From assembly GCA_032718475.1 (NCBI GenBank), contig JAUCBJ010004577.1, positions 1 to 64,000 on the forward strand: 64,000 nucleotides of DNA, written 5' to 3'. Within the stretch, counting starts at the first letter, position 1. Each line of letters begins with the position of its first letter. The notes below the pieces were generated by a model. The model searched no databases, was not told where the DNA came from, and saw only the letters and a list, made by a program, of their open reading frames with translations. Made by a program: the position numbers and the translations under genes. This stretch comes from Nemertoderma westbladi (Eukaryota > Animalia > Xenacoelomorpha). Below are positions 21,498-49,360 of the stretch, piece after piece.

Positions 21498-23076
21498 ACG
21501 TGGGCCTTCTAACCATTGGGGCGTTCAGCTTTAGATTCTTCCTTAACCTTGGCGTTGGTTGGCTTTTCAACCCAACGGGCTGATTGTCTGCTGTAATCGA
21601 CACAATTGATGGCAACATTATATATTTTTATTTCTACATTGTAATATATTAATATTGAAATAGACAGACTATTAGACCGGAGATAGATGGGCTTACCGGA
21701 CGGTCAGATGTGCAGACATCCGGACATTGAGACTGATAGATCGGACGTCCGGGCTACTCTTTTTGAGGGTTTAACCAATCAGCAGTTACCAAGTCTGACG
21801 CTAGGGTTATCATTTTTCGGGGGAAATCTACTCATGTTTAATCCTTCCGTGTTGAAAACTCACGCGAAGAAGAACTTATTAAACGAAAAATACTGATAAA
21901 TTAACCGGTGGCTATCGTATTTATTATAAACCAACCAGTAACGCAACTGATAAATTAAAATAGTAGTAAATAGAAACAGTTTAATATAACTCGTATCACA
22001 CAAGAGACGTCAACTAATATATATAGGATAATATGAATTATAATAATAGTAAGTAATATTTCTTGTACTTTATCCCATAATAAATAAACCTAGCATCGTA
22101 AAATTAAAAGGTTTTTTTTATTAGGTTTAACGAACCTAAATTCCTAGGTTATATACAACCATATATATATCCAAAGCACAGCAGTTCGAGTAGATAACAT
22201 CGGATAATTACCCAAAGGTTCTGTACAAGCGCGAGAGATATCTCAATTACTCGAGATAATGCCGTCTCTTAACCAATTTGGTTTCTTGGCTAAGTTCCTA
22301 TCAAAATCAGGGAAAATCATTACAGCAGAAGGGAATTAAAAAATAGTAGCGGCGTTGTTCAACCTTTGATAAAACCACAAACAACAAAATCTTGTTAATT
22401 GTTTATGATGGAGTGAATGTTAATTAATTTTCATCGTAAATAACATTCCAGGTGGATTTAAAACAATTCGGTCCCGAAACCGAAACCATGGGAACGACTT
22501 TTCTGGGATCGAATTGACCTGCTTCCAATACAAATCGCCGGGGTTTAAATAAAATGTAGTTAAACCTCATATTATTTGGGATAAAAACAATAATTTATCA
22601 AAACGTTTACGGGCAATAAATTATTTATAACAATTCGATTATCTTCCAGGTTTAAAACGAATCAATTGGATGAATTTGAGCCGCTCAAAGATTTTGAAAG
22701 TGAAACAATATTATTCCTCCGGTTTTATCCTAATATGAACAATAATTGCGGATTCGCAAACAACGCAACATTGAATGAAAACCAGATAAAACTAATTGAA
22801 GAAAAACTTGTGGCGAAAATAAATCAGTTTTTTCTTGAAATTTGGATGGAAGTTTTACACCAATTTTGTTACAATAATTGCATAACAAATCGGGACATTA
22901 GCCTTTTTATAAATTTAGTACCACCAATAACAAGAAATTAGACTTATATAAATAACCCAGTAACCAATGAGATCGCCGTGTTACGTTCGAGACGGGTGAG
23001 TAATCGCTGAGTCATCAACCAATCAAAGTCCACAATGTCTTCTCGCTGTCTGTAGACCGGCGTCTGCCGTGCTCGA

Positions 23077-23246
23077 TCAGACTTTGCTGTTGATCTTCTT
23101 TAGGTCGAGACTGTTGAGATTTACAGCAACGCGCTCGCGTGGGGCCGATTTCGCAGATTCGAAACAGAAACGTTTGAAATCCTCCAACTCCCGTTCAAAC
23201 TCGTCGTCTGGGTCGATGCCGTCGTTGCGAGGGAGAAAAACCTCAT
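23077..23246 (-). CDS. FAM193A: FAM193 last exon (FAM193 C-terminal domain)
   Basis: ccctgtag|AT GAG GTT TTT CTC CCT ... AAA GTC TGA; encodes EVFLPRNDGIDPDDEFERELEDFKRFCFESAKS. Confidence 0.92.
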
Positions 23247-26200
23247 CTACAGGGAATAAAGTAGAGTTAGAAGTAAACAACTGAATCAAGTGCAGTAAGT
23301 TATGGGGCTGTTCTGTTTGATTGGTTGTTATGTGAGTGCTTGCTAATTTTGGCCAGTATTAAATGCACTAAATCAACAATCACTCAATGTAACTTAGTAG
23401 TTTACATTTAAATATTAGAAGCACGCCGGTAGCTTTATGTACTCTCAGACTCTAACCAACTTACCTAATGAGTGATTGTTCAGTTGTTTGTAGTGACTGA
23501 CGTAATAATGAAAGTATGCAGGAATGTACTTAATAATAAATATAATAAATAAATATAATACAATACAATATGATGTCGGTCGGTCGGTCGGTCGGTCGGT
23601 CGGTCGGTCGGTCGGTCGGTCGGTCGGTCGGTCGGTCGGTCGGTCGGTCGGTCGGTCGGTCGGTCGGTCGGTCGGTCGGTCGGTCGGTCGGCGACCAGGC
23701 GACATCATTGGATGTTCAGAAAATGATTGCTTGTGATTTTACTCTCATGTAATAAACAAGTAAATAAAGTAGGGTTAAAAGAAAACAAGTTAATAAAGTA
23801 GGGTTAGAGGTAAACAAGTAAATAAAGTAGGGTTAAAAGTAAACAAGTAAATAAAGTAGGGTTGGAAGTAAACAAGTAAATAAAGTAGGGTTAAAAGTAA
23901 ACAAGTAAATAAAGTAGGGTTGGAAGTAAACAAGTAAATAAAGTAGAGTTGGAAGTAAACAAGTAAATAAAGTCGGGTTGGAAGTAAACAAGTAAATAAA
24001 GTAGAGTTGGAAGTAAACAAGTAAATAAAGTCGGGTTGGAAGTAAACAAGTAAATAAAGTAGGGTTAGAGGTAAACGAGTAAATAAAGTAGGGTTAGAGG
24101 TAAACGGGTAAATAAAGTAGGGTTAAAAGTAAACAAGTAAATAAAGTAGGGTTGGAAGTAAACAAGTAAATAAAGTAGGGTTAAAAGTAAACAAGTAAAT
24201 AAAGTAGGGTTGGAAGTAAACAAGTAAATAAAATAAAGTAGGGTTAAAAGTAAACAAGTAAATAAAGTAGGGTTAGAGGTAAACAAGTAAATAAAGTAGG
24301 GTTAAAAGTAAACAAGTAAATAAAGTAGGGTTGGAAGTAAACAAGTAAATAAAGTAGGGTTAAAAGTAAACAAGTAAATAAAGTAGGGTTGGAAGTAAAC
24401 AAGTAAATAAAGTAGAGTTGGAAGTAAACAAGTAAATAAAGTCGGGTTGGAAGTAAACAAGTAAATAAAGTAGGGTTAGAGGTAAACGAGTAAATAAAGT
24501 AGGGTTAGAGGTAAACGGGTAAATAAAGTAGGGTTAAAAGTAAACAAGTAAAAAAAGTAGGGTTAGAGGAAAACAATTAAATAAAGAGGGTTAGAACTAA
24601 ACAAGTAAATAAAGTAGGGCTAGAACTAAACAAGTAAGTAAAGTAGGGTTAGAGGTAAACAAGGAAATAAAGTAGGGTTGGAAGTAAACAAGTAAATAAA
24701 GCAGGGTTAGAGGTAAACAAGTAAATAAAGTAGGGTTAGAGGTAAACAAGTAAATAAAGAGGGTTAGAACTAAAGAAGTAAATAAAGTAGGGTTATAGGT
24801 AAACAAGTAAATAAAGTAGGGTTAGAGGTAAACAAGTAAATAAAGTAGAGTTAGAACTAAACAAGTAATAAAGTAGGGTTAAAAGTAAACAAGTAAATAA
24901 AGTAGGGTTAGAGGAAAACAAGTAAATAAAGAGGGTTAGAACTAAACAAGTAAATAAAGTAGGGCTAGAACTAAACAAGTAAATAAAGTAGGGTTAGAGG
25001 TAAACAAGGAAATAAAGTAGGGTTGGAAGTAAATAAGTAAATAAAGTAAGGTTAGAGGTAAACAAGTAAATAAAGTAGGGTTGGAAGTAAACACGTAAAT
25101 AAAGTAGGGTTAAAAGTAAACAAGTAAATAAAGTAGGGTTAGAAGTAAACAAGTAAATAAAGTAGGGTTAGAGGTAAACGAGTAGATAAAGTAGGGCTGG
25201 AGGTAAACAAGTAAATAAAGTAGGGTTAAAAGTAAACAAGTAAATAAAGTAGGGTTAGAGGAAAACAAGTAAATAAAGAGGGTTAGAACTAAACAAGAAA
25301 ATAAAGTAGGGCTAGAACTAAACAAGTAAATAAAGTAGGGTTAGAGGTAAACAAGGAAATAAAGTAGGGTTGGAAGTAAATAAGTAAATAAAGTAGGGTT
25401 AGAGGTAAACAAGTAAATAAAGTAGGGTTGGAAGTAAACAAGTAAATAAAGTAGGGTTAAAAGTAAACAAGTAAATAAAGTAGGGTTAGAAGTAAACAAG
25501 TAAATAAAGTAGGGTTAGAGGTAAACGAGTAGATAAAGTAGGGCTGGAGGTAAACAAGTAAATAAAGTAGAGTTAGAAGTAAACAAGTAAAAAAATAGAG
25601 AATGGTTAGAACTAAATAAGTAAATAAAGTAGGGTTAGAGGTAAACAAGTAAATAAAGTAGGGTTAGAACTAAACAAGTAAATAAAGTAGGGTTAGAGGT
25701 AAACAAGTAAATAAAGTAGGGTTAGAGGTAAACAAGTAAATAAAGTAGGGTTAGAGGTAAACAAGTAAATAAAGTAGGGTTAGAGGTAAACAAGTAAATA
25801 AAGTAGGGTTAGAACTAAACAAGTAAATAAAGTAGGGTTAGAGGTAAACAAGTAAATATATTAATTTAATTGCGCCATGGTACTGGCATTATGGTAGATA
25901 AAAACGGTATTTAATTAAATCAAATAAATAAGTAAAAACGTTAAAGAGTTAAAAGAGTTCGGTAAATTACGTATCATTAGAGGCCCAGGAGGTTAGCGTT
26001 CGCGAGTTTTCCTTGCATGTTAGTAGGTGGTATAGTGGGGCCGGGTCTCCGCACAGCAGACATACACAGCTCTCCAGGTTGGGGGCATGAAATTTATCTG
26101 TCGCACAGATCTTATGATGAAATCCGTGGACCGATACCCGTGTTGTTACGTGCCGACCGGATTGGTTAGGTTCTGTCCATTTTCGGTTCTGGAATGCCGG

Positions 26201-29200
26201 GCTGCTCCAGAACTCGACCGGAATTTCCGACTTCTTGGTTACGATATCTGCTCTATATTCCATCAAGGCAGCCGTATCGTTTAGGTGCAGATTACAAATG
26301 ATGTCCTCGACTAGAGTGTTCTCCCCGCACAAAGCTATCACAAGGCGATTCAATGTGCTTTTGTGTACGCCCAAGGTTTTCTTTAGGTAATTAGTCTTTA
26401 CTCTGTCAATTGTATGGAGGTTCGCGGTAGTCAGATGAGGCCAGATTAGATGTAGGTTGTACGTTATTATGGGTCGTATCTTTATGTTGAATACTTTTAT
26501 AGCGGTCGCCAGAGAAAGATAACGCGGGTTTGTAATGTTGTGGATAGACATTATAGATTTACAACAGATATTTGTAATGTGTGTCGAAAAGGATAACGTT
26601 GGCTGGAAAGTAACACCCAAATATGTGTAAGCGTTTCGGATTATAACAGGTTGCTGGTTGTAATAAAACTCATCTGCTTTACAAAGTTTACCTCCCCGTC
26701 GAAACTTGATCACGGCAGTTTTCTTTAAATTGACTGTGAGACCATTCAGAGCCGCCCACTCTGATAGAGCATTGAGGCCGGCTTGTAGACCTTCCCTGGT
26801 GTGTGAGTAAAACAGTAGATCGTCGGCAAACAGTAATATTACTAAAATGGCAGCCCGCTTGAGCGCATCTACCAGATCCGCAATGTATAGTATAAATAAA
26901 TAAGGACTGAGTGTATCACCCTGTAATAGGCCGATCAGCTGGCTTATTGGTTTGGTTTTACGCAACCCATCGAAGACTTGTATGTAATTGGTCGATAGTA
27001 GTATTTCTATAAATCGCAGCATTCTTCCTTTGAGCCCAAATAAACGGCGCAGTTTCTCGATGAGTTTAGGTCTTGGAACGGAATCGAATGCTTTCTTGAA
27101 ATCCACAAAGCATGCGTACAGGGGTCTCCTTGGTTGGTCGAGGTTACAGTTTATATCATGGAGCAATTGTTCAATGGGTTGTGCCGTAGATCTTCCCGGT
27201 AGGAAACCAAATTGTTCTCTGGGTATCAGGTGGCTGAAGGCGGCACGTAAGCGGCGAGCTACGAGACCAGTTAAGACCTTGTACGCATTGCACAACAACG
27301 CAATGCCTCGGTAGTTATCTGGTTCGTTACGTGGTCCTTTACCTTTGTACAACACCTTACATATACAAGATTTCCACGTAGATACAATGCGCATAGAAAT
27401 GAAGCATATGTTGAATAACGTTACCCAAAAGTAGAGAGTTAGCGGGAGTGCGGCTTTCAGTAATTCGTATGGGAGGCGGTCGGGTCCCCCGGACTTCCGA
27501 CTTGGTTTCTTCATAAACTCTTCCTCCACTTCCTCGGGAGTAAAAGGAGCATTATATGGAAGATCCTCTCCTTCACCGACGGTAGTGTATGGGACTGATT
27601 GCGATGGAGGTTCGGTAGGTGGGGTGGCTGTTGATAGTAGGTCACTGAAGTGTTTTTCCCATGCTGCCAGTGGGACTGGGCAAGGTGGTTCCGCTCTGCG
27701 TTGCTGCCACCATTTATAAGGCTCGGATTCGGCTCGAGCTATCAGTTTTTCTTCTTGGAGTTTTAGGTAGGCTGCGTGTTTTCCCTTCAGTAGGTTTTTG
27801 TATAATCGTTTCGTGCTACAAAGTAGTTCGCGTTCAGCTGGATCAACTTTGGCCCTATGGTGAAGCGTTATTACTTCTTGACGTCGTTTGTAACATTCCT
27901 CATCAAACCAGGGGTTTGATTCCTTAGAAAATATGATTGGTACGGCTGAATCTTTAATTGCCTCTGCAATATTTAAGTAGGCTGCGTCAATATCCTGCTC
28001 AAATTCCAAGAAGTTGAATGCGTTGTATAACCTAGGGTCCGCTTCCAGATTGTTTAAGTTGAGTTCTCTCTTAGTTTTTCTTTGAGAATCTTCCTTGGTC
28101 GTAGATTGTTGGTTGCTAAGGTCGTTTAGCTCCCATTCCATTCTAAGTGGTATGTGTTTCCTTAATCCATTTATCGGGTAGTCTATTGAGGAAACCTTAA
28201 CATTTGCAAATATTAAATCTATAAGACTAGAACCATTATGGCAGTAATAAGTTGGTTGAGTTAAATCATTCTGCAGTTCCAGTCCATAGTGACTTTCTTC
28301 CATGAGATATTGGAGACAATCCGCTTTGCAATTCTGTTTGTCCATTCTGGCGTTAAAATCACCGCCTAATATAATTGGTCCGTTGTAACCAGCGGGAACT
28401 GATTCGATCGCCTTATAAACGCCGTCCACTAACTCATCGCTACTAGTGTCGGGGTCGAAATAACAGCAGATAAAAACTCCAACATCTGAATTAATTGTTA
28501 CAAATGATCCTGATTTACTAACTAATTCCGGGTTCAGGTGAGGTTTAGCTGCAACTGTTATTCCCTCCATTGGTCTTCCCCTTCCTGCGGGTTTAGTCGC
28601 CTCCGTGCTCCAAGTATAGTACCCCGGTAGATCGGGTTCCTTAGTTGCGAAAGTCTCTGTTAATAGTAGGATATCAGGCCCGGACAATAAATCGTCAGAG
28701 GATAACTCAAGTACAGATTTCAGTCCTTCTATGTTCCACAGCAGGGTTGAAACGGTTAACGGTGTGGAGTGGCTATTTTGTCACGTACCAACAGTTGGTT
28801 GCGACCCAGCGACGGGCGCGTTGTTTGCGGACGGCTGGTCACGGCGCTTTAGCCCAAAGCGCTCGCGTTCGTCGTTTGACATCTTGTAGTTCTTTATGGT
28901 GATTCCGTCTCCCCAGATGTCCGGGTCCATCAGGGTTTCCCGGTGAGTCTGGCGCAGACGAGGTGGAAGGTGGCGTACCGCGAATCTGGATGATAAGCCA
29001 CGGGAAACACGTCTTCGATGGGAAGCTTCTCGCTTTTTAGGTAGTTGATAACGTCCTCACAGGTGGTGGTTGCTTCAAGGCGACCGAGACATATGTGTGC
29101 CTTCCTCGTCGCAGCGGGTGCGAGGGTCTGTCCCGGGGTAGCCGCCACTGCTCGTAAAGGCCCGCCAACCTTGCGACCGCGAGCGATAGAAGGCTGTGCT

Positions 29201-32200
29201 GGCGGAGCCTGTGGCCGAGTAGTCGCGGGTGGGAGAGTGGCACCTGAACAGGGAGGCCCGGTAGCGGTTACTACGGTTGCCGGGTTTCCGTTCCGAGTGA
29301 CGCTGCTATAACGCCGGCGGATTGGTCGATCTCCACCCGGAGTTGGATCGCGAGCATGACGAACTTCCTTTATCAGTTCATCCTTCGCATTGATGAGTTT
29401 CTGTTGGCAGTCGGCAAGTTTACCCCAGACTGGGGGTAACGAGGCGAGGTTCGAAGTGTACATAGAGTTCATCGCGAGGAGGTGTGTCATTAAGAGTTTT
29501 TCGTCCTCGTTTGATACACTCTTCTTTTGTTTTACTTTCGCGAATAAGGAGATAATATTCTCTTGGTGTTTCAAGAAGTCGTCGGCTGGAAGATCACCCA
29601 TTATAATAATACAATAATAAATCAATTAACCAATAGTAACGAGCAGATAATTAAAGAATCAAGCGCAGGATGGCAATGGCACTTTCACAAAAAAATCAAG
29701 TAAATAAGTATCAACAAGTAAATAAAGTAGGGTTAGAGGTAAACAAGTAAATAAAGTAGGGTTAGAACTACTAAACAAGTAAATAAAGTCGGGTTAGAGG
29801 TAAACAAGTAAATAAAGTAGGGTTAGAGGTAAACAAGTAAATAAAGTAGGGCTAGAAGTAAACAAGTAAATAAAGTAGGGTTAGAGGTAAACAAGTAAAT
29901 AAAGTAGGGTTAAAAGTAAACAAGTAAATAAAGTAGGGTTGGAAGTAAACAAGTAAATAAAGTAGGGTTAGAGGTAAACAATTAAATAAAGTAGGGTTAA
30001 AAGTAAACAAGTAAATAAAGTAGGGTTAGAGGAAAACGAGTAAATAAAGTAGGGTTAGAGGTAAACAAGTAAATAAAGTAGGGCTAGAAGTAAACAAGTA
30101 AATAAAGTAGGGTTAGAGGTAAACAAGTAAATAAAGTAGGGTTAGAGGTAAACAAGTAAATAAAGTAGGGTTAGAGGTAAACAAGTAAATAAAGTAGGGT
30201 TAGAGGTAAACAATTAAATAAAGTAGGGTTAAAAGTAAACAAGTAAATAAAGTAGGGTTAGAGGAAAACGAGTAAATAAAGTAGGGTTAGAGGTAAACAA
30301 GTAAATAAAGTAGGGTTAGAGGTAAACAATTAAATAAAGTAGGGTTAAAAGTAAACAAGTAAATAAAGTAGGGTTAGAGGAAAACGAGTTAATAAAGTAG
30401 GGTTAGAACTAAACAAGTAAATAAAGTAGGGTTAAAAGTAAACAAGTAAATAAAGTAGGGTTAGAACTAAACAAGTAAATAAAGTAGGGTTAGAGGTAAA
30501 CAAGTAAATAAAGTAGGGTTAGAACTAAACAAGTAAATAAAGTAGGGTTAGAGGTAAACAAGTAAATAAAGTAGGGTTAGAGGTAAACAAGTAAATAAAG
30601 TAGGGTTAGAGGTAAACAATTAAATAAAGTAGGGTTAAAAGTAAACAAGTAAATAAAGTAGGGTTAGAGGAAAACGAGTAAATAAAGTAGGGTTAGAGGT
30701 AAACAAGTAAATAAAGTAGGGCTAGAAGTAAACAAGTAAATAAAGTAGGGTTAGAGGTAAACAAGTAAATAAAGTAGGGTTAGAGGTAAACAAGTAAATA
30801 AAGTAGGGCTAGAAGTAAACAAGTAAATAAAGTAGGGTTGGAAGTAAAAAAGTAAATAAAGTAGGGTTAGAGGTAAACAAGTAAATAAAGTAGGGTTAGA
30901 GGTAAACAAGTAAATAAAGAGGGTTAGAACTAAACAAGTAAATAAAGTAGGGTTATAGGTAAACAAGTAAATAAAGTAGGGTTAGAGGTAAACAAGTAAA
31001 TAAAGTAGAGTTAGAACTAAACAAGTAAATAAAGTAGGGTTGGAAGTAAACAAGTAAATAAAGTAGGGTTAGAACTAAACAAGTAAATAAAGTAGGGTTA
31101 GAGGTAAACAAGTAAATAAAGTAGGGTTAGAACTAAACAAGTAAATAAAGTAGGGTTATAGGTAAACAAGTAAATAAAGTAGGGTTAGAGGTAAACAAGT
31201 AAAAAAAGTAGGGTTAGAAGTAAACAAGTAAATAAAGTAGGGTTAAAAGTAAACAAGTAAATAAAGTAGGGTTAAGAGTAAACAAGTAAATAAAGTAGGG
31301 TTAGAGGTAAACAAGTAAATAAAGTAGGGTTAGAGGAAAACGAGTAAATAAAGTAGGGTTAGAGGTAAACAAGTAAATAAAGAGGGTTAAAAGTAAACAA
31401 GTAAATAAAGTAGGGTTAAGAGTAAACAAGTAAATAAAGTAGGGTTGGAAGTAAACAAGTAAATAAAGTAGGGTTAGAGGTAAACAAGTAAATAAAGTAG
31501 GGTTAGAGGTAAACAAGTAAATAAAGAGGGTTAGAACTAAACAAGTAAATAAAGTAGGGTTATAGGTAAACAAGTAAATAAAGTAGGGTTAAAAGTAAAC
31601 AAGTAAATAAAGTAGGGTTAAGAGTAAACAAGTAAATAAATTAGGGTTGGAAGTAAACAAGTAAATAAAGTAGGCTTAGAGGTAAACAAGTAAATAAAGT
31701 AGGGTTAGAGGTAAACAAGTAAATAAAGTAGGGTTAGAGGTAAACGAGTAAATAAAGTAGGGTTATAGGTAAACAAGTAAATAAAGTAGGGTTAAAAGTA
31801 AACAAGTAAATAAAGTAGGGTTACGAGTAAACAAGTAAATAAAGTATGGTTAGAGGTAAACAAGTAAATAAAGTAGGGTTAGAAGTAAACAAGTAAATAA
31901 AGTAGGGTTAAAAGTAAACAAGTAAATAAAGTAGGGTTAGAGGTAAACAAGTAAATAAAGAGGGTTAGAACTAAACAAGTAAATAAAGTAGGGTTATAGG
32001 TATACAAGTAAATAAAGTAGGGTAAGAGGTAAACAAGTAAATAAAGTAGAGTTAGAACTAAACAAGTAAATAAAGTAGGGTTGGAAGTAAACAAGTAAAT
32101 AAAGTAGGGTTAAAAGTAAACAAGTAAATAAAGTAGAGTTGGAAGTAAACAAGTAAATAAAGTAGCGTTAGAGGTAAACAAGTAAATAAAGTAGGGTTGG

Positions 32201-35200
32201 AAGTAAACAAGTAAATAAAGTATAGCGTTAAAAGTAAACAAGTAAATAAAGTAGGGTTAGAACTAAACAAGTAAATAAAGTAGGGTTAGAGGTAAACAAG
32301 TAAATAAAGTAGGGTTAGAGGTAAACAAGTAAATAAAGTAGGGTTAGAGGTAAACAAGTAAATAAAGTAGGGTTAGAGGAAAACGAGTACATAAAGTAGG
32401 GTTAGAACTAAACAAATAAATAAAGTAGGGCCAGAAGTAAACAAGTAAATAAAGTAGGGTTAGAGGTAAACAAGTAAATAAAGTAGGGTTAGAGGTAAAC
32501 AAGTAAATAAAGTAGGGTTAGAGGAAAACGAGTAAATAAAGTAGGGTTAGAGGTAAACAAGTAAATAAAGTAGGGCTAGAAGTAAACAAGTAAATAAAGT
32601 AGAGTTAGAGGTAAACAAGTAAATAAAGTAGGGTTAGAGGTAAACAAGTAAATAAAGTAGGGTTAGAGGAAAACGAGTAAATAAAGTAGGGTTAGAGGTA
32701 AACAAGTAAATAAAGTAGGGTTAGAGGTAAACAAGTAAATAAAGTAGGGTTAGAGGTAAACAAGTAAATAAAGTAGGGTTAGAGGTAAACAAGTAAATAA
32801 AGTAGGGTTAGAGGAAAACGAGTAAATAAAGTAGGGTTAGAGGTAAACAAGTAAATAAAGTAGGGCTAGAAGTAAACAAGTAAATAAAGTAGGGTTAGAG
32901 GTAAACAAGTAAATAAAGTAGGGTTAGAGGTAAACAAGTAAATAAAGAGGGTTAGAACTAAACAAGTAAATAAAGTAGGGCTAGAACTAAACAAGTAAAT
33001 AAAGTAGGGTTAGAGGTAAACAAGGAAATAAAGTAGGGTTGGAAGTAAATAAGTAAATAAAGTAGGGTTAGAGGTAAACAAGTAAATAAAGTAGGGTTGG
33101 AAGTAAACAAGTAAATAAAGTAGGGTTAGAGGTAAACAAGTAAATAAAGTAGGGTTAGAACTAAACAAGTAAATAAAGTAGGGCTAGAAGTAAACAAGTA
33201 AATAAAGTAGGGTTAGAACTAAACAAGTAAATAAAGTAGGGCTAGAAGTAAACAAGTAAATAGAGTAGGGTTAGAGGTAAACAAGTAAATAAAGTAGGGT
33301 TAGAGGAAAACGAGTAAATAAAGTAGGGTTAGAGGTAAACAAGTAAATAAAGAGGGTTAGAACTAAACAAGTAAATAAAGTAGGGTTATAGGTAAACAAG
33401 TAAATAAAGTAGGGTTAGAGGTAAACAAGTAAAAAAAGTAGGGTTAGAAGTAAACAAGTAAATAAAGTAGGGTTAAAAGTAAACAAGTAAATAAAGTAGG
33501 GTTAAGAGTAAACAAGTAATTAAAGTAGGGTTGGAAGTAAACAAGTAAATTAAAGTAGGGTTAGAGGTAAACAAGTAAATAAAGTAGGGTTAGAGGTAAA
33601 CAAGTAAATAAAGAGGGTTAAAAGTAAACAAGTAAATAAAGTAGGGTTAAGAGTAAACAAGTAAATAAAGTAGGGTTGGAAGTAAACAAGTAAATAAAGT
33701 AGGGTTAGAGGTAAACAAGTAAATAAAGTAGGGTTAGAGGTAAACAAGTAAATAAAGAGGGTTAGAACTAAACAAGTAAATAAAGTAGGGTTATAGGTAA
33801 ACAAGTAAATAAAGTAGGGTTAAAAGTAAACAAGTAAATAAAGTAGGGTTAAGAGTAAACAAGTAAATAAATTAGGGTTGGAAGTAAACAAGTAAATAAA
33901 GTAGGCTTAGAGGTAAACAAGTAAATAAAGTAGGGTTAGAGGTAAACAAGTAAATAAAGTAGGGTTAGAGGTAAACGAGTAAATAAAGTAGGGTTATAGG
34001 TAAACAAGTAAATAAAGTAGGGTTAAAAGTAAACAAGTAAATAAAGTAGGGTTACGAGTAAACAAGTAAATAAAGTATGGTTAGAGGTAAACAAGTAAAT
34101 AAAGTAGGGTTAGAAGTAAACAAGTAAATAAAGTAGGGTTAAAAGTAAACAAGTAAATAAAGTAGGGTTAGAGGTAAACAAGTAAATAAAGAGGGTTAGA
34201 ACTAAACAAGTAAATAAAGTAGGGTTATAGGTATACAAGTAAATAAAGTAGGGTAAGAGGTAAACAAGTAAATAAAGTAGAGTTAGAACTAAACAAGTAA
34301 ATAAAGTAGGGTTGGAAGTAAACAAGTAAATAAAGTAGGGTTAAAAGTAAACAAGTAAATAAAGTAGAGTTGGAAGTAAACAAGTAAATAAAGTAGCGTT
34401 AGAGGTAAACAAGTAAATAAAGTAGGGTTGGAAGTAAACAAGTAAATAAAGTATAGCGTTAAAAGTAAACAAGTAAATAAAGTAGGGTTAGAACTAAACA
34501 AGTAAATAAAGTAGGGTTAGAACTAAACAAGTAAATAAAGTAGGGTTAGAGGTAAACAAGTAAATAAAGTAGGGTTAGAGGTAAACAAGTAAATAAAGTA
34601 GGGTTAGAGGAAAACGAGTACATAAAGTAGGGTTAGAACTAAACAAATAAATAAAGTAGGGCCAGAAGTAAACAAGTAAATAAAGTAGGGTTAGAGGTAA
34701 ACAAGTAAATAAAGTAGGGTTAGAGGTAAACAAGTAAATAAAGTAGGGTTAGAGGAAAACGAGTAAATAAAGTAGGGTTAGAGGTAAACAAGTAAATAAA
34801 GTAGGGCTAGAAGTAAACAAGTAAATAAAGTAGAGTTAGAGGTAAACAAGTAAATAAAGTAGGGTTAGAGGTAAACAAGTAAATAAAGTAGGGTTAGAGG
34901 AAAACGAGTAAATAAAGTAGGGTTAGAGGTAAACAAGTAAATAAAGTAGGGTTAGAGGTAAACAAGTAAATAAAGTAGGGTTAGAGGTAAACAAGTAAAT
35001 AAAGTAGGGTTAGAGGTAAACAAGTAAATATAGTAGGGTTAGAGGAAAACGAGTAAATAAAGTAGGGTTAGAGGTAAACAAGTAAATAAAGTAGGGCTAG
35101 AAGTAAACAAGTAAATAAAGTAGGGTTAGAGGTAAACAAGTAAATAAAGTAGGGTTAGAGGTAAACAAGTAAATAAAGAGGGTTAGAACTAAACAAGTAA

Positions 35201-38200
35201 ATAAAGTAGGGCTAGAACTAAACAAGTAAATAAAGTAGGGTTAGAGGTAAACAAGGAAATAAAGTAGGGTTGGAAGTAAATAAGTAAATAAAGTAGGGTT
35301 AGAGGTAAACAAGTAAATAAAGTAGGGTTGGAAGTAAACAAGTAAATAAAGTAGGGTTAGAGGTAAACAAGTAAATAAAGTAGGGTTAGAACTAAACAAG
35401 TAAATAAAGTAGGGTTAGAGGTAAACAAGTAAATAAAGTAGGGTTAGAGGTAAACAAGTAAATAAAGTAGGGTTAGAACTAAACAAGTAAATAAAGTCGG
35501 GTTAGAGGTAAACAAGTAAATAAAGTAGGGTTAGAGGTAAACAAGTAAATAAAGTAGGGCTAGAAGTAAACAAGTAAATAAAGTAGGGTTAGAGGTAAAC
35601 AAGTAAATAAAGTAGGGTTAAAAGTAAACAAGTAAATAAAGTAGGGTTGGAAGTAAACAAGTAAATAAAGTAGCGTTAGAGGTAAACAAGTAAATAAAGT
35701 AGGGTTAAAAGTAAACAAGTTAATAAAGTAGGGTTAGAGGTAAACAAGTAAATAAAGTAGGGTTAGAGGTAAACAATTAAATAAAGTAGGGTTAAAAGTA
35801 AACAAGTAAATAAAGTAGGGTTAGAGGAAAACGAGTAAATAAAGTAGGGTTAGAGGTAAACAAGTAAATAAAGTAGGGCTAGAAGTAAACAAGTAAATAA
35901 AGTAGGGTTAGAGGTAAACAAGTAAATAAAGTAGGGTTAGAGGTAAACAAGTAAATAAAGTAGGGTTAGAGGTAAACAAGTAAATAAAGAGGGTTAGAAC
36001 TAAACAAGTAAATAAAGTAGGGTTATAGGTAAACAAGTAAATAAAGTAGGGTTAGAGGTAAACAAGTAAATAAAGTAGAGTTAGAACTAAACAAGTAAAT
36101 AAAGTAGGGTTAGAAGTAAACAAGTAAATAAAGTAGGGTTAAAAGTAAACAAGTAAATAAAGTAGGGTTAAAAGTAAACAAGTAAATAAAGTAGGGTTAG
36201 AAGTAAACAAGTAAATAAAGTAGGGTTAGAGGTAAACAAGTAAATAAAGTAGGGTTAGAGGTAAACGAGTAAATAAAGTAGGGTTAGAACTAAACAAGTA
36301 AATAAAGTAGGGTTAGAAGTAAACAAGTAAAAAAATAAAGACGGATTAGAACTAAACAAATAAATAAAGTAGGGCCAGAAGTAAACAAGTAAATAAAGTA
36401 GGGTTAAAAGTAAACAAGTAAATAAAGTAGGGTTAAAAGTAAACAAGTAAATAAAGTAGGGTTAAAAGTAAACAAGTAAATAAAGTAGGGTTAGAAGTAA
36501 ACAAGTAAATAAAGTAGGGTTAGAAGTAAACAAGTAAATAAAGTAGGGTTAAAAGTAAACAAGTAAATAAAGTAGGGTTAAAAGTAAACAAGTAAATAAA
36601 GTAGGGTTAGAAGTAAACAAGTAAATAAAGTAGGGTTAGAGGTAAACAAGTAAATAAAGTAGGGTTAGAGGTAAACGAGTAAATAAAGTAGGGTTAGAAC
36701 TAAACAAGTAAATAAAGTAGGGTTAGAGGTAAACAAGTAAATAAAGTAGGGTTAGAGGTAAACAAGTAAATAAAGAGGGTTAGAACTAAACAAGTAAATA
36801 AAGTAGGGTTATAGGTAAACAAGTAAATAAAGTAGGGTTAGAGGTAAACAAGTAAATAAAGTAGAGTTAGAACTAAACAAGTAAATAAAGTAGGGTTAGA
36901 AGTAAACAAGTAAATAAAGTAGGGTTAAAAGTAAACAAGTAAATAAAGTAGGGTTAAAAGTAAACAAGTAAATAAAGTAGGGTTAGAAGTAAACAAGTAA
37001 ATAAAGTAGGGTTAGAAGTAAACAAGTAAATAAAGTAGGGTTAAAAGTAAACAAGTAAATAAAGTAGGGTTAAAAGTAAATAAGTAAATAAAGTAGGGTT
37101 AGAAGTAAACAAGTAAATAAAGTAGGGTTAGAGGTAAACAAGTAAATAAAGTAGGGTTAGAGGTAAACGAGTAAATAAAGTAGGGTTAGAACTAAACAAG
37201 TAAATAAAGTAGGGTTAGAGGTAAACAAGTAAATAAAGTAGGGTTAGAGGTAAACGAGTAAATAAAGAGGGTTAGAACTAAACAAGTAAATAAAGTAGGG
37301 TTATAGGTAAACAAGTAAATAAAGTAGGGTTAGAGGTAAACAAGTAAATAAAGTAGAGTTAGAACTAAACAAGTAAATAAAGTAGGGTTAGAAGTAAACA
37401 AGTAAATAAAGTAGGGTTAAAAGTAAACAAGTAAATAAAGTAGGGTTAAAAGTAAACAAGTAAATAAAGTAGGGTTAGAAGTAAACAAGTAAATAAAGTA
37501 GGGTTAGAGGTAAACAAGTAAATAAAGTAGGGTTAGAGGTAAACGAGTAAATAAAGTAGGGTTAGAACTAAACAAGTAAATAAAGTAGGGTTAGAAGTAA
37601 ACAAGTAAATAAAGTAGGGTTAAAAGTAAACAAGTAAATAAAGTAGGGTTAGAAGTAAACAAGTAAAAAAATAGAGACGGGTTAGAACTAAACAAATAAA
37701 TAAAGTAGGGCTAGAACTAAACAAGTAAGTAAAGTAGGGTTAGAACTAAACAAGTAAATAAAGTAGGGCTAGAGGTAAACAAGTAAATAAAGTAGAGTTA
37801 GAACTAAACAAGTAAATAAAGTAGGGTTATAGGTAAACAAGTAAATAAAGTAGGGTTAGAGGTAAACAAGTAAATAAAGTAGAGTTAGAACTAAACAAGT
37901 AAATAAAGTAGGGTTAGAACTAAACAAATAAATAAAGTTGGGTTGGAAGTAAACAAGTAAGTAAAGTAGGGTTAGAACTAAACAAGTAAATAAAGTAGGG
38001 TTAGAACTAAACAAATAAATAAAGTAGGGCCAGAAGTAAACAAGTAAATAAAGTAGGGTTAGAAGTAAACAAGTAAATAAAGTAGGGTTAGAGGTAAACA
38101 AGTAAATAAAGTAGAGTTAGAACTAAACAAGTAAATAAAGTAGGGTTAGAAGTAAACAAGTAAATAAAGTAGGGTTAAAAGTAAACAAGTAAATAAAGTA

Positions 38201-41200
38201 GGGTTAGAAGTAAACAAGTAAATAAAGTAGGGTTAGAAGTAAACAAGTAAATAAAGTAGGGTTAGAAGTAAACAAGTAAATAAAATAGGGTTAGAAGTAA
38301 ACAAGTAAATATAGTAGGGTTAAAAGTAAACAAGTAAATAAAGTAGGGTTAAAAGTAAACAAGTAAATAAAGTAGGGTTAGAAGTAAACAAGTAAATAAA
38401 GTAGGGTTAAAAGTAAACAAGTAAATAAAGTAGGGTTGGAAGTAAACAAGTAAATAAAGTAGGGTTAGAAGTAAACAAGTAAATAAAGTAGGGTTAGAAG
38501 TAAACAAGTAAATAAAGTAGGGTTAGAACTAAACAAGTAAATAAAATAGGGTTAGAAGTAAACAAGTAAATATAGTAGGGTTAAAAGTAAACAAGTAAAT
38601 AAAGTAGGGTTAGAAGTAAACAAGTAAATAAAGTAGGGTTAAAAGTAAACAAGTAAATAAAGTAGGGTTAAAAGTAAACAAGTAAATAAAGTAGGGTTGG
38701 AAGTAAACAAGTAAATAAAGTAGGGTTAGAAGTAAACAAGTAAATAAAGTAGGGTTAGAAGTAAACAAGTAAATAAAGTAGGGTTAGAGGTAAACAAGTA
38801 AATAAAGTAGAGTTAGAACTAAACAAGTAAATAAAGTAGGGTTAGAAGTAAACAAGTAAATAAAGTAGGGTTAAAAGTAAACAAGTAAATAAAGTAGGGT
38901 TAGAAGTAAACAAGTAAATAAAGTAGGGTTAGAAGTAAACAAGTAAATAAAGTAGGGTTAGAACTAAACAAGTAAATAAAATAGGGTTAGAAGTAAACAA
39001 GTAAATATAGTAGGGTTAAAAGTAAACAAGTAAATAAAGTAGGGTTAAAAGTAAACAAGTAAATAAAGTAGGGTTAGAAGTAAACAAGTAAATAAAGTAG
39101 GGTTAAAAGTAAACAAGTAAATAAAGTAGGGTTAAAAGTAAACAAGTAAATAAAGTAGGGTTAGAGGTAAACAAGTAAATAAAGTAGGGTTGGAAGTAAA
39201 CAAGTAAATAAAGTAGGGTTAGAGGTAAACAAGTAAATAAAGTAGGGTTGGAAGTAAACAAGTAAATAAAGTAGGGTTAGAACTAAACAAGTAAATAAAA
39301 TAGGGTTAGAAGTAAACAAGTAAATATAGTAGGGTTAAAAGTAAACAAGTAAATAAAGTAGGGTTAAAAGTAAACAAGTAAATAAAGTAGGGTTAGAAGT
39401 AAACAAGTAAATATAGTAGGGTTAAAAGTAAACAAGTAAATAAAGTAGGGTTAAAAGTAAACAAGTAAATAAAGTAGGGTTAGAAGTAAACAAGTAAATA
39501 AAGTAGGGTTAAAAGTAAACAAGTAAATAAAGTAGGGTTAAAAGTAAACAAGTAAATAAAGTAGGGTTAGAGGTAAACAAGTAAATAAAGTAGGGTTGGA
39601 AGTAAACAAGTAAATAAAGTAGGGTTAGAAGTAAACAAGTAAATAAAGTAGGGTTAGAGGTAAACGAGTAAATAAAGTAGGGTTAGAAGTAAACAAGTAA
39701 AAAAATAGAGACGGGTTAGAACTAAACAAATAAATAAAGTAGGGCTAGAGGTAAACAAGTAAATAAAGTAGGGTTAGAACTAAACAAATAAATAAAGTAG
39801 GGTTGGAAGTAAACAAGTAAGTAAAGTAGGGTTAGAACTAAACAAGTAAATAAAGTAGGGTTAGAACTAAACAAATAAATAAAGTAGGGCCAGAAGTAAA
39901 CAAGTAAATAAAGTAGGGTTAGAAGTAAACAAGTAAATAAAGTAGGGTTAGAGGTAAACAAGTAAATAAAGTAGAGTTAGAACTAAACAAGTAAATAAAG
40001 TAGGGTTAGAAGTAAACAAGTAAATAAAGTAGGGTTAAAAGTAAACAAGTAAATAAAGTAGGGTTAGAAGTAAACAAGTAAATAAAGTAGGGTTAGAAGT
40101 AAACAAGTAAATAAAGTAGGGTTAGAACTAAACAAGTAAATAAAGTAGGGTTAGAAGTAAACAAGTAAATAAAGTAGGGTTAAAAGTAAACAAGTAAATA
40201 AAGTAGGGTTAAAAGTAAACAAGTAAATAAAGTAGGGTTAAAAGTAAACAAGTAAATAAAGTAGGGTTAGAAGTAAACAAGTAAAAAAATAGAGACGGGT
40301 TAGAACTAAACAAATAAATAAAGTAGGGCTAGAACTAAACAAGTAAGTAAAGTAGGGTTAGAACTAAACAAGTAAATAAAGTAGGGTTAAAAGTAAACAA
40401 GTAAATAAAGTAGGGTTAAAAGTAAACAAGTAAATAAAGTAGGGTTAAAAGTAAACAAGTAAATAAAGTAGGGTTAGAAGTAAACAAGTAAAAAAATAGA
40501 GACGGGTTAGAACTAAACAAATAAATAAAGTAGGGCTAGAACTAAACAAGTAAGTAAAGTAGGGTTAGAACTAAACAAATAAATAAAGTAGGGCCAGAAG
40601 TAAACAAGTAAATAAAGTAGGGTTAGAAGTAAACAAGTAAATAAAGTAGGGTTAGAAGTAAACAAGTAAATAAAGTAGGGTTAGAGGTAAACAAGTAAAT
40701 AAATTAGGGTTAAAAGTAAACAAGTAAATAAAGTAGGGTTAGAGGTAAACGAGTAGATAAAGTAGGGCTGGAGGTAAACAAGTAAATAAAGTAGGGCTAG
40801 AAGTAAACAAGTAAATAAAGTAGGGTTAGAACTAAACAAGTAAATAAAGTAGGGCTAGAAGTAAACAAGTAAATAAATTAGGGTTAGAAGTAAACAAGTA
40901 AATAAAGTAGGGTTAGAGGTAAACAAGTAAATAAAGTAGGGTTAGAGGTAAACGAGTAAATAAAGTAGAGTTAGAACTAAACAAGTAAATAAAGTAGGGT
41001 TAGAGGTAAACGAGTAAATAAAGTAGGGTTGGAAGTAAACAAGTAAATAAAGTAGGGTTAGAACTAAACAAGTAAATAAAGTAGGGTTAGAAGTAAACAA
41101 GTAAATAAAGTAGGGTTAAAAGTAAACAAGTAAATAAAGTAGGGTTAGAAGTAAACAAGTAAAAAAATAGAGAAGGGTTAGAGGAAAACGAGTAAATAAA

Positions 41201-44200
41201 GTAGGGTTAGAACTAAACAAATAAATAAAGTAGGGCCAGAAGTAAACAAGTAAATAAAGTAGAGTTAGAACAAAACAAGTAAATAAAGTAGGGTTAGAAG
41301 TAAACAAGTAAATAAAGTAGGGTTAGAACTAAACAAGTAAATAAAGTAGGGTTAGAGGTAAACAAGTAAATAAAGTAGGGTTAGAGGTAAACGAGTAAAT
41401 AAAGTAGAGTTAGAACTAAACAAGTAAATAAAGTAGGGTTAGAAGTAAACAAGTAAATAAAGTAGGGTTATAGGTAAACAAGTAAATAAAGTAGAGTTAG
41501 AACTAAACAAGTAAATAAAGTAGGGTTAGAAGTAAACAAGTAAATAAAGTAGGGTTAAAAGTAAACAAGTAAATAAAGTAGGGTTAGAAGTAAACAAGTA
41601 AAAAAATAGAGAACGGTTGGAACTAAACAAATAAATAAAGTAGGGTTGGAAGTAAACAAGTAAATAAAGTAGGGTTAGAGGTAAACAAGTAAATAAAGTA
41701 GTTAGAGGTAAACAAGTAAATAAAGTAGGGCCAGAAGTATACAAGTAAATAAAGTAGAGTTAGAACTAAACAAGTAAATAAAGTAGGGTTAGAGGAAAAC
41801 GAGTAAATAAAGTAGGGTTAGAGGAAAACAAGTAAATAAAGTAGGGCCAGAAGTAAACAAGTAAATAAAGTAGAGTTAGAACTAAACAAGTAAATAAAGT
41901 AGGGTTAGAAGTAAACAAGTAAATAAAGTAGGGTTAGAACTAAACAAGTAAATAAAGTAGGGTTAAAAGTAAACAAGTAAATAAAGTAGGGTTAGAGGTA
42001 AACAAGTAAATAAAGTAGGGCCAGAAGTAAACAAGTAAATAAAGTAGAGTTAGAACTAAACAAGTAAATAAAGTAGGGTTAGAAGTAAACAAGTAAATAA
42101 AGTAGGGCCAGAAGTAAACAAGTAAATAAAGTAGAGTTAGAACTAAACAAGTAAATAAAGTAGGGTTAGAAGTAAACAAGTAAATAAAGTAGGGTTAAAA
42201 GTAAACAAGTAAATAAAGTAGGGTTAGAAGTAAACAAGTAAATAAAGTAGGGTTAGAGGTAAACAAGTAAATAAAGTAGGGTTAGAGGTAAACAAGTAAA
42301 TAAAGTAGGGTTAGTGGTAAACAAGTAAATAAAGAGGGTTAGAGGTAAACAAGTAAATAAAGAGGGTTAGAGGTAAACAAGTAAATAAAGTAGGGTTAGA
42401 GGTAAACAAGTAAATAAAGTAGGGTTAGAGGAAAACGAGTAAATAAAGTAGGGCTAGAAGTAAACAAGTAAATAAAGTAGGGTTAGAGGTAAACAAGTAA
42501 ATAAAGTAGGGTTAGTGGTAAACAAGTAAATAAAGAGGGTTAGAGGTAAACAAGTAAATAAAGTAGGGTTAGAGGTAAACAAGTAAATAAAGTAGGGTTA
42601 GTGGTAAACAAGTAAATAAAGAGGGTTAGAGGTAAACAAGTAAATAAAGTAGGGTTAGTGGTAAACAAGTAAATAAAGAGGGTTAGAGGTAAACAAGTAA
42701 ATAAAGTAGGGTTAGAGGTAAACAAGTAAATAAAGAGGGTTAGAGGTAAACAAGTAAATAAAGAGGGTTAGAGGTAAACAAGTAAATAAAGTAGGGTTAG
42801 AGGTAAACAAGTAAATAAAGTAGGGTTAGAGTAAAACGAGTAAATAAAGTAGGGCTAGAAGTAAACAAGTAAATAAAGTAGGGTTAGAGGTAAACAAGTA
42901 AATAAAGTAGGGTTAGAGGTAAACAAGTAAATAAAGTAGGGTTAGAGGAAAACGAGTACATAAAGTAGGGTTAGAGGTAAACAAGTAAATAAAGTAGGGC
43001 TAGAAGTAAACAAGTAAATAAAGTAGGGCTAGAAGTAAACAAGTAAATAAAGTAGGGTTAGAGGTAAACAAGTAAATAAAGTAGGGTTAGTGGTAAACAA
43101 GTAAATAAAGAGGGTTAGAGGTAAACAAGTAAATAAAGTAGGGTTAGAGGTAAACAAGTAAATAAAGAGGGTTAGAGGTAAACAAGTAAATAAAGTAGGG
43201 TTAGAGGAAAACGAGTAAATAAAGTAGGGTTAGAGGTAAACAAGTAAATAAAGTAGGGCTAGAAGTAAACAAGTAAATAAAGTAGGGCTAGAAGTAAACA
43301 AGTAAATAAAGTAGGGTTAGAGGTAAACAAGTAAATAAAGTAGGGTTAGAGGTAAACAAGTAAATAAAGTAGGGTTAGAGGAAAACGAGTACATAAAGTA
43401 GGGTTAGAACTAAACAAATAAATAAAGTAGGGCCAGAAGTAAACAAGTAAATAAAGTAGGGTTAGAGGTAAACAAGTAAATAAAGTAGGGTTAGAGGAAA
43501 ACAAGTAAATAAAGTAGGGTTAAAAGTAAACAAGGAAATAAAGTAGGGCAAGAGGTAAACAAGTAGATAAAGTAGGGCAAGAGGTAAACAAGTAAATAAA
43601 GTAGGGTTAGAGGTAAACAAGTAAATAAAGTAGGGTTAGAGGTAAACAAGTAAGGTTCGACTTAGAAGTAAACTAATGAAATAAAAACTCTCTATACAAT
43701 AACTCACCGATTCCACCTTTCCCCTTCTTCTTTTTTTCCTTTGATTTACCGCCGCTACTCGGCGTTGCTTTCTTTCCCTGTGTTGGCGTTGCTGTTGTAT
43801 CCACCTTTTTTCCCGGCGTTTTTCCCGTAACGACATCCTTAGCTGGTTTCGTGGTCGACGATTTTCCCGAAGATTTCTTCCCGGTCTCTCCCCACTGCAC
43901 TGACGGATTATCCACGACCATCTGTTTCGCGTTGCGTTGCTGTTTAAAGCCGATTTCGCCAACGGCATTCTGACCCTCGGGTCCCGTATTACTCACTAAA
44001 TCCCCGTTTCGGGCTTCGTATTTAGTCGCGCCTTCTACCGGGTTGTTCTTCTTATCCTTCAGCGTTGGCGTCGGCAATAAACAATTCGTTTTATTCAAAG
44101 AAATTAATGTTTTTCTCGTATCTGCTTTGCTTGTTGTGTTGGTAACAGTTCCGGGACTTTTATTTTCGACTATTTTGGGATTTTTCTTGGCTTTGTGTTG

Positions 44201-47200
44201 TTGGGGTTGAGGTGGGTTTATGGGTTTAGGATTTACAGGAACTGGGGTAGGAGTGTCAACGACAATCTCGCGACTGTCGCTCGCTGCTCGGGATGTTTTA
44301 TGTCGGTCCTTCTTGCCAGATTTGCCGACGGGTTGTGCGACCGATGGCTGATCTCGAGTTTTACTTCCGACCCTGGAAGATTCCGACTTAGTTGAATTTT
44401 CTAGTGACGGCGGTTTCGTTTTTCGATGTGTTTCTGGCGAAATTGCGGGAACATTTGAAGGAGCATCAATCTCGCAAGTACCATTGGTTAAGGTCTATAA
44501 AACGATATTAAACTGTTTGTTTATAATTTAGTAATTAATTATTATAATACTTGGTTTCGTCTTAGTACTGGCTTTTTCTGTTTATAGTTTGTTTATAAGG
44601 GGTTACGACACTATTATATAATTTCAGGTCATTGTTCATAAAATAACACTATATATCGCGTTACGACACGAGATGCATGATGTTGCGACATAGCAAAACT
44701 GCGCCGAATCTAATTATATTTATTTGTGTGGAATTATATTTGTAATTATACACTCATTTAAACTTTCTAGAACAAACAACCCTTTAACACAGCAGAAGCA
44801 ATAATTATCAATGTACCAGAGTTGGGTGGTGGATAATACGCTGGACTGAGGATGGAAGGGTCATTGGTTCGAATCGAATCACAGTGATTTAGTTATTTTG
44901 ATTTAATGTGAGTTCAAATGCACCATGTCCTGTAACATTGTGTCATTATTCAGCGAGATTAACTCCACATAAAAATAAATAAATAATAACATAAGAATCA
45001 CTAACCTTAACAGAGTCTTTTTTCAATTTTGATTTCTCTTTTTTCTTTTCCTTTTTCGCGATTTTTTTCCGCTCTTTTGTTCCGTCGCCTTCGTTTATCC
45101 AACTAAGTAGTTCATCAACATTCCTGGCATCGTTATTATCCAAACCTGAAAACCGTCGGGTTTAATGAATTATGTGTTGGTGTCAAATGTGTTACGACAA
45201 AAGATACACCCAAACTGGGATAGATCAGATACGAGGTTTTATTTTACGACACGAGAACAAATAGTTCGAAATCAGCATATTTTCGGTCGGCATATATCTA
45301 CACAAACAGATTATCATTCAGAATATTTCACCCACCTTTAACTGTTGTAGTTGCCCCGTCTTTGGGCGCAGACCACGTGTTAATTTGCGACAATGGCGGT
45401 GTGCTAGTACCTGTAATATAGACGGTAGATTAGATAGTTAGATTGATTAGATAGTTAGATTGATTAGATAGTTAGACTGATTAGATAGTTAGATTGATTA
45501 GATAGTTAGATTGATTAGATAGTTAGATTGATTAGATAGTTAGATTGATTATATAGTTAGATTGATTAGATAGTTAGATTGATTAGATAGTTAGATTGAG
45601 TATATAGTTAGTTTGATTAGATAGTTAGATTGATTAGATAGTTAGATTGATTAGATAGTTAGATTGATTATATAGTTAGATTGATTAGATAGTTAGATTG
45701 ATTAGATAGTTAGATTGAGTATATAGTTAGTTTGATTAGATAGTTAGACTGATTAGATAGTTAGATTGATTAGATAGTTAGATTGATTAGATAGTTAGAT
45801 TGATTAGATAGTTAGATTGATTAGATAGTTAGATTGAGTATATAGTTAGTTTGATTAGATAGTTAGATTGATTAGATAGTTAGATTGATTAGATAGTTAG
45901 ATTGATTAGATAGTTAGATTGATTAGATAGTTAGATTGATTAGATAGTTAGATTGATTAGATAGTTAGATTGATTAGATAGTTAGATTGATTAGATAGTT
46001 AGATTGAGTATATAGTTAGTTTATTGAAATAATATATAATATATAATTTCTTGTAAATTTGGTTTCAACATTATTATAATAATTCTGACAATTTTCGCCC
46101 ATTGTGACTGGCTGTATGGTATGGGTAGTGGGTGACCACCTAATTTTTGCGGTTTAGTCAAAATTGGGAAAGTGATTGTTTAACAATCAAAACTATTGGT
46201 TTTTGTTAAAGAAGTTTTTAATTTAATAATCTAATGAAATGTTTAGCAATTAACATTTGAGAAGGAGGAATGTTTATAATGCTGCTTAAATGGTATTAAA
46301 ATGGTAAATAAAATAAAAAGAAAGACTAAAAATCATCTAACTAACCTGCGCAATGGCTGATATTGGAATGAGCGTTGTTACTAAGGATACAAGGTGTGCC
46401 AGTACCCCCACCTCCACCAACAACCTCTATACAACCCGCGGAACCACCGTTACCAACCGCAACCGCATCCGGTTGCTTCTTCTGTTTCAACTTCTTCCGT
46501 AGTCGCTCCTTAATCTCGGCGCAGTTCCGCCCCGCGGGGGACTGACTGTTCTGCGAGTGCGCGAAGATCTCGCAGTAGTAGCAGCTGCAGGGCTTCCCGT
46601 TGTCTCGTCGCCACGAGTCGTTGGTAGACTCGCTGTTCGTCTCGCTACTCTCCTCCTCGGAAACCTCGACGGATCCGTCGTCGCTCGATTCGGTCGGAGC
46701 CGGAACGCCGCCCGCCGCTACCCGACATAAACCCCGCGATTTCAGCAGCTCATCCGCGTTGGGGTGACTCAGAAGTTCAGCCACTATCTGTTGGGTTTTA
46801 TTCATCAACTGATCTTCTGCAAAAGCAATAATATTATTAATTTATAAATTGTTAATATTGAATGGGAGAATCTTTTAGGCTCGTTAAGCCAAGGAATGCC
46901 TGTTCACCACCATGGGTGATCTTCCACAGTAAACCCTTCCACTCTGTTTCCCAAGTTGCCTTGGCTCCCATTTATCGACCACTGAAGGATGAAAGCCGGG
47001 GTTGGGCTAGGCTGCAGCATTTAAAGCACTGTGCCCAAACAGTGCTGCCCCATCTAGGGATCGAACCAGGGCTCCCTAATCGGAAGCCCAGTAATGTCAC
47101 CACTAGACCAAGCTGCTGCAAATTGTTTATATTACTATAACAATAATCTTATTTTTAAAATTACATTAAAACCACATAAATAATGAAAAAAGATAATTCG

Positions 47201-49350: not shown

Positions 49351-49360
49351 CTAGCAGTGA

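Follow-up and report, generated by a model that had tools for sequence, protein, structure and literature searches.

An intronic satellite in the FAM193 gene of Nemertoderma westbladi built from the sequence beside its own acceptor

Tandem repeats that copy a splice signal of the gene in which they lie are known from human introns. In F7 IVS7 (intervening sequence 7, a 37-bp variable number tandem repeat), CBS IVS13, 6-16 intron 2, LAMIN B2 and PDGF intron 4, the repeated signal is a donor; these minisatellites hold 5 to about 25 monomers, and mostly the exon-adjacent site is used (PMC1557585). Two further phenomena bear on how such arrays might act. The ratchet points of recursive splicing are sites at which an acceptor and a donor are juxtaposed (PMC8605326), and in sponges of the CUG/MBNL type of myotonic dystrophy type 1 (DM1) the repeat RNA lies in foci and the splicing factor is depleted (PMC11540926). 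No report of a satellite built from a branch point and pyrimidine tract was found in a literature search that took in few subscription papers. Here, an array of this kind is described in the last intron of the FAM193 gene of the xenacoelomorph Nemertoderma westbladi, within a window of 64,000 nt (assembly GCA_032718475.1, contig JAUCBJ010004577.1, positions 1 to 64,000). It consists of repeated copies of the sequence that separates the likely branch point of this intron from its confirmed acceptor, and a local origin has good support.

FAM193 lies on the minus strand, where a single open frame runs to the stop codon across five exon segments (46346-46816, 45336-45410, 45006-45145, 43708-44494 and 23077-23246). 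The last intron, 23247-43707, measures 20,461 nt as assembled, and the other introns of the gene 190-935 nt. The final exon matches FAM193_C (PF15914, E 3.9e-13, profile positions 2-54 of 58), and this match begins at the exon junction; the assignment to FAM193 made in a preliminary description of the sequence is thereby confirmed. A protein search with the same exon gave no match among its 14 candidates. The 3' untranslated region carries an AATAAA at 22122.

The boundaries of the last intron come from a 2,885-nt contig (record 25 of run X4) that joins 23246 to 43708. It aligns to 21950-23247, after which its next letters are those of 43709 onward; on the donor side it aligns to 43703-44496, with a loose end that enters the last exon. 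The GT-AG intron between 45145 and 45336 is likewise spliced out in this contig, which goes on from 45410 into 46346. Although run X4 carries the label 'DNA?', the splicing shows the contig to be a transcript, or at least copied from one. Because it joins the two exons, the donor and the acceptor of the last intron are both real, and the acceptor at 23247 is the one that the preliminary description had assumed. An AG at 23281-23282 was considered as an alternative acceptor and rejected, as it would add 34 nt and break the frame and the contig uses 23247. No X4 contig spans the acceptor unit or an array edge; this was not weighed, since contigs drop rare forms. In a second individual (S2), contigs lead out of the exon into the 472-bp segment that borders the acceptor unit, and others enter the array from the donor side. 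Because S2 is alike at both ends of the intron, the layout is no peculiarity of a single assembly. An Rfam scan of 23200-30200 returned 0 matches.

The acceptor itself ties the intron to the array. The 26 nt at 23255-23280 are identical to an array unit at 25561-25586, as previously noted. The window holds 2 exact copies of this 26-mer; 82 further copies differ from it by one mismatch and 289 by two. Outside the arrays the acceptor copy is its only match within 5 mismatches. The sole CTRAY in the last 60 nt of the intron places its A at -21 (window 23267), exactly where the preliminary description had put the branch point; that this A acts as the branch point is a prediction from the motif. 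The two arrays into which the satellite is divided (Table 1) together comprise 16,049 bp and 552 full 29-nt units, or 78% of the intron. The earlier estimate of a 16-kb satellite was accurate in size, but it did not mention the long interspersed nuclear element (LINE) that splits the array. The majority unit contains no AG on the transcribed strand, again as described before. By contrast, the figure of about 550 branch points was not borne out, with CTAAC in 350 of the 552 units and the looser YTRAY in 441. Next to the donor lies a decayed partial unit (43659-43673, 14 of 15 nt, shuffle p 0.0014), which is what an array grown in place would be expected to leave at its margin. On the plus (antisense) strand of both arrays, the consensus unit includes AATAAA and many units carry a donor-like AG/GTAAAC, features that could matter only to antisense transcripts.

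Table 1. Positions of the features discussed, in window coordinates
Feature	Position	Strand	Basis or content
Last FAM193 exon, coding part to stop codon	23077-23246	-	PF15914, five-exon open frame, X4 record 25
Real 3' splice site: 26-nt array unit, CTAAC, pyrimidine tract, TAG	23247-23280	-	X4 junction
Composite segment, 472 bp, flanked by TAAACAA	23281-23752	not assigned	Dispersed-repeat sequence, A-rich stretch, (GTCG)29
Array A: 72 full 29-nt units	23753-25858	-	CTAAC 36, AG 13, acceptor-like sites 7
Intact LINE in sense orientation, 3,854 bp, between the arrays	25859-29712	-	Target duplication of 12 bp, consisting of array sequence
Array B: 480 full 29-nt units	29713-43655	-	CTAAC 314, AG 103, acceptor-like sites 59
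Unique 5' end of intron, donor GTGAGT at 43707	43654-43707	-	Donor confirmed by X4
Penultimate FAM193 exon, 787 nt	43708-44494	-	Spliced contig, open frame
Array in upstream FAM193 intron, 17-mer x 34.8	45428-46019	-	CTAAC 35, CTAAT 29, AG 2
Sar1 intron array, 30-mer x 111.5, repeating exon end and donor	3680-6872	-	Sequence only
31-mer array, about 472 copies, at least 14.6 kb	49361 to window end (64000)	YAG counted on -	

The account that we consider likely is that an intron of about 66-92 nt underwent a local duplication and grew by neutral expansion to 20.4 kb, its spare acceptors staying silent for want of a donor or poly(A) signal. With the two insertions and every unit except one subtracted, the intron comes to about 92 nt, and further removal of the decayed partial unit brings it, by arithmetic, to about 66 nt. 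Because 18 of the 62 possible 29-nt windows in the 92-nt intron hold the branch motif, a branch-point polymer needs no special cause here. Local amplification is also common in this region, given that four satellites fill 34,472 of the 64,000 window bases (54%).

The starting point of this account is observed: the unit is acceptor-proximal sequence, and donor and acceptor are joined in the spliced contig. A 29-nt slippage duplication ending 8 nt short of the exon would then have copied the branch point and pyrimidine tract and left the AG behind. The stretch from branch point to acceptor is an AG exclusion zone (PMC10190034), and 79% of shuffles of the T-rich 29-nt unit are free of AG; for both reasons the AG-free consensus would be inherited from that zone and not the product of later selection. 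Unequal exchange or slippage could subsequently have amplified the unit together with blocks of variants, common AG-creating ones among them. Two mobile sequences lie within the array, the LINE with its 12-bp duplication and the 472-bp repeat with its 7-bp duplication, and they would have entered it after this growth. The 472-bp insertion would have cut the last unit off from the others, and this unit continues to serve the acceptor. That TAAACAA is duplicated around this segment (23274-23280 and 23753-23759, bracketing 472 bp) agrees with the preliminary description, and its proposal that the array originally began at the acceptor is most likely right, in view of the 7-bp duplication round a repeat-rich insertion and of the decayed copy at the donor.

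The last step concerns why a single acceptor is used. Look-alikes were sought as a CTRAY with its A at -18 to -40, an AG-free interval of at least 60% pyrimidine and a YAG. The arrays contain 66 such sites, with the A at -24 or -30, and the first, at 43288, is 420 nt from the donor, which is within the range of this gene's other intron lengths. The main assembled transcript skips all 66 in favour of the authentic acceptor (contigs do not show rare use). The preliminary description had held that the array is mostly silent for lack of AG. In fact, 116 of the 552 units contain AG (125 AGs in total), and the second commonest variant, C8>G, is found in 90 copies, with A14>G in 47. Masking by RNA structure was rejected for a 291-nt piece of array RNA: this piece is unstructured (minimum free energy -0.7 kcal/mol, z +1.7), and folding therefore does not hide its sites. 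Given the 66 look-alikes, the frequency of AG and the lack of structure, absence of AG cannot explain the silence of the array.

What the look-alikes seem to lack is a partner downstream. A donor-like motif follows 0 of the 66 within 300 nt and 2 of the 66 within 800 nt (nearest 711), GTRAG does not occur in the arrays, and AATAAA is absent from the intron's sense strand, where the three ATTAAA all lie in the LINE. It is likely this want of a donor or poly(A) signal downstream that keeps the spare acceptors silent. Under exon definition, only the last copy would have an exon and a 3' end behind it, and the 66 look-alikes would remain without a partner.

Several points weigh against this account. 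The short ancestral intron is a reconstruction from the present sequence. Contigs drop rare isoforms, and array acceptors may be used at a low level. Exon definition is assumed for this animal, in which the preceding exon is long (787 nt). The 472-bp segment is composite, and may not stem from a single insertion event. Three other FAM193 introns have no CTRAY in their last 60 nt, which makes the branch motif a loose one in this species. Finally, splice signals underlie three of the four large arrays of the window, an excess over the outcome of uniform seeding that chance placement explains incompletely.

This last point leads to a further possibility, which adds to local duplication and neutral expansion and does not replace them: duplications that hold splice signals may be preferentially seeded or amplified, for example through transcription-linked or chromatin-linked breaks at exon edges, or because strongly skewed purine/pyrimidine sequences make good seeds. 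We regard such a bias as possible and hold it tentatively. The evidence comes from the neighbouring arrays. In an upstream FAM193 intron, the 17-mer array stops 17 nt before a confirmed exon start (45410) and carries two branch-like motifs per unit. When collapsed, this intron still measures about 360 nt, and only 13 of its 342 windows hit the motif. In the Sar1 gene, the 30-mer array holds 72 copies of AAG/GTNAGT, of which the first lies at 6854 and the first four keep the reading frame open; the collapsed intron would be about 116 nt long. Homology favours the first of these donors as the one in use, and donors 2-4, if used, would add 10, 20 or 30 residues near the Sar1 C-terminus. A protein search with the Sar1 exon gave 460 matches, the best named ones being from molluscs and annelids at about 75-85% identity.

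The fourth large array differs in its apparent source. It has a pyrimidine run and a YAG in nearly every unit of its minus strand (468 YAG). On the plus strand, the decayed relic of a reverse transcriptase (about 48830-49360) is colinear with the start of the array. The alignment of 17 of 27 nt (shuffle p 0.03, equalled by 10 of 237 control windows) is suggestive of seeding by this LINE relic. Anchoring on a splice signal is thus seen in three of the four large arrays (the branch regions of the 29-mer and 17-mer and the donor of the Sar1 30-mer), for which a rough binomial calculation gives p 2e-5 to 4e-4 (uniform seeding, 27-10 kb of non-coding sequence). Among the small tandem repeats, 0 of 11 lie on a mapped signal (Fisher p 0.009); this set comprises 11 of the 14 Tandem Repeats Finder (TRF) rows outside the large arrays, after exclusion of a poly-G run, a (GTCG)n run and one overlapping row. 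Against a bias of this kind stand the post hoc nature of the comparison, its n of 4 from one window, and the choice of signal type array by array. Moreover, two of the three anchored introns probably were small at the outset: collapsed, they come to about 92 and 116 nt, lengths at which the chance of a hit is 0.29 and 0.22. The 31-mer, besides, appears to begin in the LINE relic. A wider version of the idea would make splice signals hot spots of satellite birth in this animal: duplicated branch regions or donors would reach hundreds of copies, introns of 60-120 nt would become introns of 3-20 kb, and polymers of their own splice signals would drive the growth of introns genome-wide, tolerated because only the exon-touching copy is read. 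This, likewise, is a reading that we entertain with reserve.

A second alternative reverses the direction of events: the 29-mer would be a dispersed satellite that arrived from elsewhere, and one copy would have been co-opted as branch point and pyrimidine tract. Other mobile DNA did enter this intron twice. However, no duplication surrounds the whole array and a decayed unit lies at the donor. Without the unit about 60 nt would remain, with no other CTRAY near the acceptor. Among the listed loose ends of contigs matching the 26-mer, all continue as array, and the two neighbouring arrays of 17-mer and 30-mer also copy their own local sequence. On the evidence of this window, an imported satellite is very unlikely.

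Slightly less probable still is a function along the lines of the preliminary description, in which the array would be retained for its many decoy branch points, silent because selection removes AG, and would bind SF1/U2. Transient binding is plausible, as 350 of the 552 units present CTAAC in an unstructured, pyrimidine-rich RNA, and four of the seven possible AG-creating changes were never seen. The count of variants that the preliminary description had proposed nevertheless shows no depletion: AG-creating change types are seen in 3 of 7 cases and others in 38 of 80 (Fisher p = 1.0), and for changes to G alone the figures are 3 of 6 and 6 of 22 (p 0.35). The branch pentamer also varies more than the remaining columns of the unit do, with a mean of 42 departures per CTAAC column as against 24 elsewhere. 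These comparisons are to be read with the shared ancestry of the units in mind, by which copy counts are not independent events; they reveal neither selection against AG nor selection in favour of the branch motif. The AG already present in 116 units, and the fact that four shuffled units in five are AG-free anyway, argue in the same direction. On quantity, the few nascent transcripts expected would offer hundreds to thousands of sites, which is small against the pools of U2 and SF1, and sequestration by this one locus looks stoichiometrically unlikely.

Stepwise recursive splicing through AG-bearing units, also raised before, is the least probable of these readings: the 66 acceptor-like sites are spread along the arrays and ten AG/GT sites lie elsewhere in the intron, but the 16,049 nt of array contain no AGGT at all (their AGs precede TT, CC or TA), none of the ten pairs a strong tract with a strong donor, and the only one with a strong donor (23464-23466) has a weak pyrimidine tract (0.53) and sits 218 nt from the real acceptor.

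The two insertions differ in character. In the 472-bp segment, dispersed-repeat sequence occupies about 23299-23538 and recurs with other flanks in many diverged contigs of X1-X4, and no second copy of the segment is present in the window; it is likely an insertion. Its (GTCG)29 microsatellite (23571-23708) is bounded by a 9-nt inverted repeat, ATGATGTCG ... CGACATCAT, as read by eye. The AG/GTAAGT on its sense strand at 23464-23466, strongly donor-like, could serve as the donor end of a cryptic exon opened by an AG further upstream. The LINE is probably young, and contains an open reading frame (ORF) 1 at about 28930-29601 and an ORF2 at 25967-28780 that encodes an endonuclease and a reverse transcriptase (937 aa from stop to stop). 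Two of its three sense-strand ATTAAA lie near its 3' end, just ahead of T/GT-rich array sequence, and form a possible premature poly(A) site. Older LINE material is found between Sar1 and FAM193, where decayed reverse-transcriptase fragments occupy 18917-20142 and 21297-21494 of the minus strand; 19294-20142 matches RVT_1.

Taken together, the data give good support to the feature and to its local origin, but not to decoy, sponge and stepwise functions. The FAM193 intron is better regarded as a large natural experiment in acceptor choice than as a demonstrated splicing decoy. Its donor bypasses 66 well-spaced sites with branch motif, tract and YAG, the nearest only a few hundred nucleotides away, for an acceptor 20 kb downstream; this is hard to reconcile with a rule by which the closest acceptor is taken, and agrees with definition by the exon downstream. 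If the anchoring of three large arrays in four on splice signals were to hold across the genome, it would suggest that introns can expand by a route not recognised before.

Comparison with the systems described in the cited texts places this locus beside the F7 type of minisatellite. Like that type, it is an intronic tandem array in a spliced gene, its monomer repeats the gene's own splice signal, with CTAAC as the predicted branch motif, and the exon-adjacent copy is the one that the main assembled transcript uses. It differs in lying on the acceptor side and ending 8 nt before the exon, and in its 552 copies over 16 kb as against 5 to about 25. Furthermore, the 29-mer does not span the exon-intron boundary, and full pseudo-acceptors arise only through later point changes. 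It thus works like the F7-type family without being a member of it, as an acceptor-side analogue of the F7 and CBS donor minisatellites. The Sar1 30-mer, a boundary-spanning donor repeat, does fit the F7 type in its sequence. The kl-3 and kl-5 introns of the Drosophila Y (PMC11207136, PMC6508621) resemble the FAM193 intron in owing most of their length to satellite and in carrying transposon insertions; in contrast, they extend over hundreds of kb to Mb, where this intron has 20 kb, a unit taken from the local splice signal and no evidence of a special expression programme. Ratchet points share with these arrays the presence of acceptor-like sites in a long intron, and differ from them in the juxtaposed donor, which the arrays lack. 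The NARS2 spl-TR (PMC10078293) is likewise a tandem repeat in a 3' splice site region. Expansion there lengthens the branch-site distance from 35 to 49 nt and makes splicing weaker, whereas the last FAM193 copy keeps its A at -21, because each unit carries its own branch motif.

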